From assembly GCF_058153355.1 (NCBI RefSeq), contig NZ_CM177019.1: a DNA stretch of 64,000 nt. One strand, written 5' to 3'. Below are positions 60,245-60,353 of the stretch, in pieces. A program made the translations under genes and the position numbers. The stretch's first letter is position 1. Each line of letters starts with the position of its first letter. A model generated the notes under the pieces. The model was not told the origin of the DNA. It searched no databases and was given only the letters and a program-made list of their open reading frames with translations.

Positions 60245-60252
60245 TCCGCCCC

Positions 60253-60289
60253 CTGGGTGTATATACAGTTATGCTGTGAGTATATACAG
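60253..60289. promoter_or_regulatory. Two tandem LexA boxes in the lexA promoter
   Basis: CTGGGTGTATATACAG (about 60253-60268) and CTGTGAGTATATACAG (about 60274-60289) on the displayed strand, i.e. CTGT-N8-ACAG boxes read on the lexA strand, within 50 nt upstream of the lexA ATG. Confidence 0.9.
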
Positions 60290-60353
60290 CAAAAGGCGAT
60301 TTTGGAACCATAAACTGCACAATAAACCAGAGATTTATCGAATTCTGGAAGGG

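Follow-up and report, generated by a model that had tools for sequence, protein, structure and literature searches.

Two LexA operators at an Escherichia coli lexA promoter identical to that of K-12, and a terminator-like hairpin in the lexA-dinF spacer

Within the window, by which we mean the whole 64,000-nucleotide stretch of DNA analyzed here, positions 60245..60353 are almost certainly the native E. coli lexA promoter with two LexA operators, the negative-autoregulation node of the SOS response. Both sites, with the matrix scores given below, lie in DNA that is identical to K-12 and conserved across Enterobacterales, and the lexA and dinF genes that follow are intact. LexA repression at both operators, the approximate transcription start and lexA-dinF co-transcription would carry over from what has been published for K-12, whose sequence is identical here. 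None of the data contradict the reading of this region as an autoregulated lexA promoter.

The region corresponds exactly to the 109-bp dgkA-lexA intergenic region, and all genes of the locus lie on the minus strand, a point absent from the preliminary description:

60722..60354, minus strand: dgkA, the upstream neighbor of lexA
60244..59636, minus strand: lexA, an ORF of 202 aa, with its ATG at 60244..60242 and a TGA stop at 59638..59636
59617..58238, minus strand: the long dinF ORF from the K-12-style start, 459 aa
59563..58238, minus strand: dinF from the conserved start, 441 aa, a MATE-family transporter

The gene order, dgkA, lexA, dinF, yjbJ, zur, is the same as in K-12. The encoded LexA is identical to K-12 LexA at 202/202 residues, scores 289.5 bits against the equivalog model TIGR00498 (cut-off 110.95) and matches solved LexA structures over their full length, including the LexA-DNA structure 3jso; the cognate repressor is thus encoded immediately downstream of the boxes. 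DinF covers positions 1-440 of the 441 in the NCBIfam equivalog profile NF007690, at 903 bits. The product of dgkA had no NCBIfam match, and we take the identity of this gene from identical DNA annotated in RefSeq. We found no convincing terminator from dgkA to the lexA promoter (60292..60365, minus strand), the terminator scan being empty and the fold having z = -1.36, and dgkA transcription might continue into the lexA operators. Elsewhere in the neighborhood, beside zur, a 334-aa ORF (56035..57039, minus strand) is rich in Asn, Lys and Asp; the closest genome annotates it as a DUF2713 family protein, and by composition it looks foreign to its surroundings.

The preliminary description had placed two SOS boxes 5 bp apart directly before lexA, and this is literally correct when read from the sequence:

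60289..60274, minus strand: distal box, the 16-mer CTGTATATACTCACAG, CTG-N10-CAG
60291..60272, minus strand: distal operator, the 20-mer TGCTGTATATACTCACAGCA, 'operator II' in PMC7440846, overlapping the -10 hexamer
60273..60269, minus strand: inter-box spacer CATAA, 5 bp, giving a start-to-start distance of 21 bp
60268..60253, minus strand: proximal box, the 16-mer CTGTATATACACCCAG, CTG-N10-CAG
60270..60251, minus strand: proximal operator, the 20-mer AACTGTATATACACCCAGGG, 'operator I' in PMC7440846

Both boxes fit the 16-bp CTG-N10-CAG palindrome with a TA-rich center, for which the gammaproteobacterial SOS-box consensus is TACTG(TA)5CAGTA (PMC6590174), and the proximal box is the 18-mer given for lexA/dinF in Table 7 of PMC3009722. 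The 8 nt between the end of the proximal box and the lexA ATG read GGGGCGGA.

Scores were obtained with a 20-bp matrix built from 26 other E. coli LexA sites, with the lexA and uvrA/ssb sites excluded. We take the training sites to be those tabulated in Lewis 1994 and in Fernandez de Henestrosa 2000; 10 of the 26 agree with the 18-mers in Table 7 of PMC3009722. Ranking the roughly 64,000 positions of the window with this matrix gave the following order:

Rank 1: uvrA/ssb box, 44139..44158, 19.67 bits
Rank 2: distal lexA box, 60291..60272, minus strand, 19.63 bits
Rank 3: proximal lexA box, 60270..60251, minus strand, 18.94 bits
Rank 4: next best site, 11.63 bits

The three top sites are separated from the next match by a gap of 7 bits. 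The preliminary description had proposed such a scan and had named failure of the boxes against a LexA matrix as grounds for giving them up; at 19.63 and 18.94 bits they do not fail, and both lie within the range of the training sites (13.1 to 27.8 bits). Their heterology indices are 7.0 and 7.3, values that come from our home-made matrix and are not the published Lewis 1994 HI values. A second matrix, made only from the 11 sites whose 18-mers are printed in PMC3009722, again places the lexA boxes at ranks 1 and 2. With this 11-site matrix a T-rich match at 21232..21249 reaches 15.45 bits, and it was set aside as over-fitting, with 9.9 bits in the 26-site matrix. The scan thus returns precisely the three known SOS boxes of the window, the lexA pair and the uvrA/ssb box, and serves as a positive control.

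Two further places in the window were noted in the course of the scan. The uvrA/ssb SOS box TACTGTATATTCATTCAGGT (44139..44158) is a single box for two divergent genes:

43987..43451, minus strand: ssb, beside the uvrA/ssb box
44242..47064, plus strand: uvrA, beside the uvrA/ssb box

In addition, an AT-rich stretch at 30363..30605, which maps to the acs-nrfA intergenic region, holds a cluster of three weak matrix matches (11.6, 7.6 and 8.3 bits); the cluster is most likely an effect of composition.

Could the lexA boxes be chance AT-rich palindromes in a promoter region? The bare CTG-N10-CAG frame is indeed common, with 23 matches in the window against 14 expected, and is uninformative because it is too common. 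With the full matrix, however, the exact score distribution gives P = 1.4e-7 per position for the distal box (0.009 expected in 64 kb) and P = 2.3e-7 for the proximal box (0.015 expected in 64 kb), for two sites that lie 21 bp apart, and Markov simulations (n=200, 64 kb each) contained a mean of 0.11 matches of at least 15 bits. The boxes are also conserved across a bacterial order and identical to experimentally characterized operators. Matrix scores, exact probabilities and cross-species conservation together refute a chance origin, the probability of which we regard as negligible.

We therefore return to the two boxes as LexA operators and to the promoter in which they lie. On the minus strand, the 3´ part of the region carries TTCCAA, 17 nt and TATACT inside ...TGCTGTATATACTCACAGCATAACTGTATATACACCCAGGGGGCGGAATG:

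60307..60302, minus strand: candidate -35 hexamer TTCCAA, from a custom hexamer-pair scan
60284..60279, minus strand: -10 hexamer TATACT, inside the distal operator and invariant across species
60256..60252, minus strand: Dcm site CCAGG, within CCCAGGG (60251..60257), inside the proximal operator

This is the sole good hexamer pair in the intergenic region, with 8/12 matches; a generic promoter scan made no call for the lexA promoter because the -35 hexamer matches at only 3/6 positions. Published work places operator II over conserved RNA polymerase binding sequences (PMC7440846), and assigns +17 and +45 to the target cytosines of two Dcm sites (PMC9210283). From the latter numbering, on which both sites agree, we infer that transcription starts at about 60271, within the inter-box spacer. 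With this start, the distal operator would extend from about -18 to -3 and the proximal operator from about +4 to +19, so that the distal box lies over the -10 hexamer and the proximal box between the start and the ATG. The Dcm site in the proximal operator has been reported to show stationary-phase-specific methylation that leaves lexA expression unaffected, and LexA hinders Dcm at the proximal box in vivo (PMC9210283). The CC of the Dcm-site region is replaced by AA in more distant genera.

Near the lexA operator region, Rfam gave no RNA family matches. Elsewhere in the window, Rfam matches above the gathering score comprise the sraL sRNA (40045..40185, plus strand, 153 bits), SECIS_2 (19466..19520, plus strand, 87.9 bits), whose coordinates map inside fdhF, and three naRNA4 (REP-type) elements (21989..22172 and 32720..32791, both minus strand).

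The alignment to the K-12 lexA promoter that the preliminary description had also proposed runs over 141 bp, including the whole intergenic region (109/109), at 100% identity to MG1655. The two operators, the -10 hexamer, the Dcm site, the LexA protein and the 72-nt lexA-dinF spacer are likewise identical to K-12; what differs is flanking coding DNA only, by silent differences, and the element itself is predicted to be functionally the same. Identity to K-12 is 95.7% for dgkA, 96.1% for lexA and 92.9% for dinF. The 24 nucleotide differences in lexA are all synonymous, since the proteins agree at 202/202 residues, and the stop codon is TGA here and TAA in K-12. A similar picture emerges within the species: of 5426 complete E. 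coli genomes, at least 5407 contain the 41-bp double operator unchanged and as a single copy, and 5373 complete genomes have at least 99% identity over the 109-bp intergenic region, whereas only 9 of 5425 reach at least 99% identity over the 1171 bp around lexA. Intergenic identity amid diverged coding DNA indicates that the operator region is much more constrained than the surrounding silent sites.

As an observation in its own right, the dgkA-lexA-dinF coding DNA (58238..60722) is unusually divergent for E. coli, and the neighboring yjbJ is 99.5% identical to K-12, which suggests that 58238..60722 is an allele block that is rare or has recombined. Strain 2020CK-00188 has the closest genome.

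Comparison across Enterobacterales extends the constraint beyond the species. A protein-guided scan collected lexA loci from 80 species-level genomes, 79 of which contain the lexA start, and boxes were counted when they scored at least 10 bits within 70 nt upstream of the start codon. Exactly two boxes were found in 74 of the 79 species. In the other five, namely Arsenophonus, Candidatus Pantoea persica, two Photorhabdus and one metagenome-assembled genome, the second box is point-mutated or lost. All 74 two-box species share one and the same distal 16-mer. The proximal box retains its CTGTAT...CAG arms in these species and drifts at its center, which is ATATACACC here versus ATAAACAAA or ATAAACAAC in more distant genera. 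Of the 74, 62 have an inter-box gap of 5 bp, 4 species (Erwinia and one Pantoea) have one of 4 bp and the other 8 (Pantoea, Tatumella, Mixta and Rosenbergiella) one of 3 bp, and since gaps of 4 and 3 bp do occur, the 21-bp register is not absolutely required. The two boxes are the best-conserved columns upstream of lexA. Averaged over the columns of each segment, identity to the window sequence is as follows:

Distal box: 0.996
Proximal box: 0.888
Bases before the ATG: 0.92
-35 hexamer: 0.81
Inter-box spacer: 0.67
Rest of the intergenic DNA: 0.42-0.54

In addition, a GGTT just 5´ of the -35 hexamer is nearly invariant across species. In many genera no dinF was found in the 1.7 kb that follow lexA (Yersinia, Photorhabdus, Xenorhabdus, Proteus, Providencia, Morganella, Dickeya, Pectobacterium, Arsenophonus and others). 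The double operator is still present in most of them, which implies that the operators belong to lexA and not to the lexA-dinF pairing.

Conservation of this kind can have more than one source, and the invariance of the distal box could come partly from the -10 hexamer that it encloses rather than from LexA binding alone. Taken further, only one operator might work, with the distal box kept for its -10 hexamer, or the proximal box for the adjoining ribosome-binding site. TATACT does lie inside the distal 16-mer, the proximal box adjoins the conserved GGGGCGGA that precedes the ATG, and a promoter with a single operator of matched strength behaves like wild type (PMC7440846). Yet invariance in the 74 species extends to the CTG and CAG arms beyond the -10 hexamer, and the proximal box, with conserved arms around a drifting center, shows the pattern expected of a LexA site. 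Both boxes also score like validated sites, and half-site mutations in the identical K-12 sequence inactivate operators I and II and show that each represses, and that the two repress equally (PMC7440846). We consider a single working operator very unlikely.

If two operators are favored over one, the same question can be asked of three, because the region contains a further CTG-N10-CAG frame:

60330..60315, minus strand: third CTG-N10-CAG, CTGGTTTATTGTGCAG, upstream of the -35 hexamer and 25 bp from the distal box

From its upstream position, this box probably corresponds to the 'operator III' proposed in the literature (PMC7440846), and Enterobacter genomes carry a slightly better version of it, at 10.7 bits. 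Beyond this fit to the minimal frame, the box in the window scores 8.04 bits, a level at which 3.6 to 5 matches per 64 kb arise by chance, and with a column identity of 0.52 it is conserved no better than neighboring non-functional DNA (0.42 to 0.54). Operator III was tested and found non-functional for repression (PMC7440846). Being at chance level, unconserved and non-functional in the published test, a third LexA-bound operator was rejected, and we hold a triple operator to be extremely unlikely.

With two operators, the promoter would work as follows. A LexA dimer would bind each CTG-N10-CAG palindrome through its winged-helix domains, with the distal operator covering the -10 hexamer and the proximal operator covering about +4 to +19, just past the start. 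Occupation of either operator would block initiation by RNA polymerase, and LexA would in this way limit its own synthesis. Upon DNA damage, RecA-ssDNA filaments would stimulate LexA self-cleavage, leaving the operators empty and raising lexA transcription. Transcription of dinF would rise too, via read-through of the hairpin and T-tract in the 72-nt spacer. Ongoing lexA transcription would then allow LexA to re-accumulate and shut the regulon off after the signal ends. This model agrees with reports on K-12 of two functional lexA operators that give negative feedback (PMC7440846, PMC9210283).

The downstream half of the locus is less simple than the preliminary description had it. The lexA-dinF operon was described there as intact, and this is borne out by the gene order, the full-length LexA and DinF, and operator DNA identical to K-12; what has to be added is a terminator-like hairpin in the spacer between the two genes:

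59625..59590, minus strand: terminator-like element from a terminator scan, with the stem at 59625..59596 and the T-tract TTTGTTTTT at 59598..59590

The hairpin has a 13-bp stem with 8 G-C pairs and a 4-nt loop, followed by TTTGTTTTT, the stem-loop and T-run of an intrinsic terminator. Alone it folds at -24.1 kcal/mol, and its 83-nt context has z = -3.0. After the lexA stop, 67 of 81 loci have a hairpin of -10 kcal/mol or lower, the sequences being unrelated. In the window the 72-nt spacer is 100% identical to K-12, versus 92.9% for dinF. A literature search for a described lexA-dinF terminator gave nothing specific.

The start of dinF bears on how this spacer is drawn. The preliminary description had dinF beginning 18 nt after the lexA stop, and an ATG at 59617 does open the long ORF there, as in the K-12 annotation (b4044, 459 aa); the conserved start, however, is at 59563, 72 nt after the stop. 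Positions 1-440 of the 441 in NF007690 align to residues 19-458 of the long ORF, and the RefSeq annotation of a strain identical over 1171 bp here also places the dinF start 72 nt past the lexA stop. Wherever a genus carries dinF downstream of lexA, homology starts at the Met at 59563 or within a few residues of it. E. albertii lacks the upstream ATG, another Escherichia genome has an in-frame TAA after it, and in the window it sits in the 5´ arm of the spacer hairpin (59625..59596). The 459-aa K-12 DinF is thus probably annotated 18 codons too long, and these comparisons favor a protein of 441 aa from 59563.

A hairpin of this form raises the question of whether lexA and dinF are in fact separate units, the element at 59625..59590 ending the lexA transcript and dinF being expressed from elsewhere. 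The element has the look of a canonical intrinsic terminator, with its 13-bp stem, 8 G-C pairs and TTTGTTTTT tail, a hairpin after lexA is conserved in structure, and lexA occurs without dinF in many genera. Against this, lexA and then dinF lie on the minus strand only 72 nt apart, in the gene order of an operon. A scan of the minus strand over 59500..60900 showed no promoter-like site besides the lexA promoter region, although a consensus scan is weak evidence of absence, and the lexA-dinF spacer has no LexA box, with no matrix match above 4 bits. Tiling arrays in K-12, where the spacer is identical, detected one continuous UV-induced lexA-dinF transcript (PMC3009722, Fig. 4 legend), and dinF is listed in reviews as co-transcribed with lexA, without an operator of its own (PMC6590174). 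Partial termination is compatible with all of these observations, and we judge separate units to be rather unlikely.

For lexA and dinF as one unit, then, the sequence of the spacer suggests that dinF expression probably depends on read-through of the hairpin. Given the continuous K-12 transcript and the co-transcription reported in reviews, the likeliest role of the hairpin would be to attenuate dinF relative to lexA, by partial termination or 3´-end stabilization. The hairpin and T-tract could end most transcripts, in which case the term operon overstates the coupling of dinF to lexA. The value of these results for annotation is modest, and lies in the corrected dinF start and in the conserved terminator-like hairpin after lexA.

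The lexA promoter is among the earliest and best-studied bacterial autoregulatory promoters. Brent and Ptashne, and also Little and co-workers, reportedly gave the first descriptions of operators I and II of K-12 lexA in 1980-81. Later work has returned to this promoter (PMC7440846, PMC9210283). The element in the window is identical to that of K-12 and has no aspect that is new; it is a real but ordinary lexA promoter. The other Enterobacterales share the two boxes right before the start codon, the distal 16-mer and usually the 5-bp gap, but differ in the proximal center, in the gap (4 bp in Erwinia, 3 bp in Pantoea and Tatumella) and in that dinF is often not downstream. In comparison with the uvrA/ssb box, the lexA boxes belong to the same motif class and have similar scores (19.67 bits at uvrA/ssb), though uvrA/ssb has a single box for two divergent genes and lexA has two. 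In colicin genes the boxes overlap and are bound cooperatively, and the boxes of recN vary widely in strength, whereas lexA in the window has two separate sites of about equal strength. What recN (three boxes), the colicin genes (several operators) and lexA share is the clustering of LexA sites on one promoter (PMC7440846; PMC8072944 Table 1), and Salmonella lexA is listed among the genes with more than one LexA box (PMC8072944). Cooperativity between dimers was not detected experimentally at the lexA operators (PMC7440846).

Why lexA has two operators is a question that K-12 work has itself posed: since the matched-strength promoter with one operator behaves like wild type, the physiological reason for two 'remains unclear' (PMC7440846). 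The retention of two operators in 74 of 79 species, 62 of them at 21 bp, despite the equal performance of a single operator, points to a possible further function. The double operator might have a role beyond simple repression, such as one that involves a second factor, a filter for damage dose or noise control, and the lexA hairpin may additionally set the lexA:dinF ratio; we regard this as improbable. The comparative data sharpen a point that is open in the literature, that of a double operator that is strongly conserved and whose physiological advantage is unclear. The element being identical to K-12, the discovery of a further function, if true, would concern the family and not this locus.
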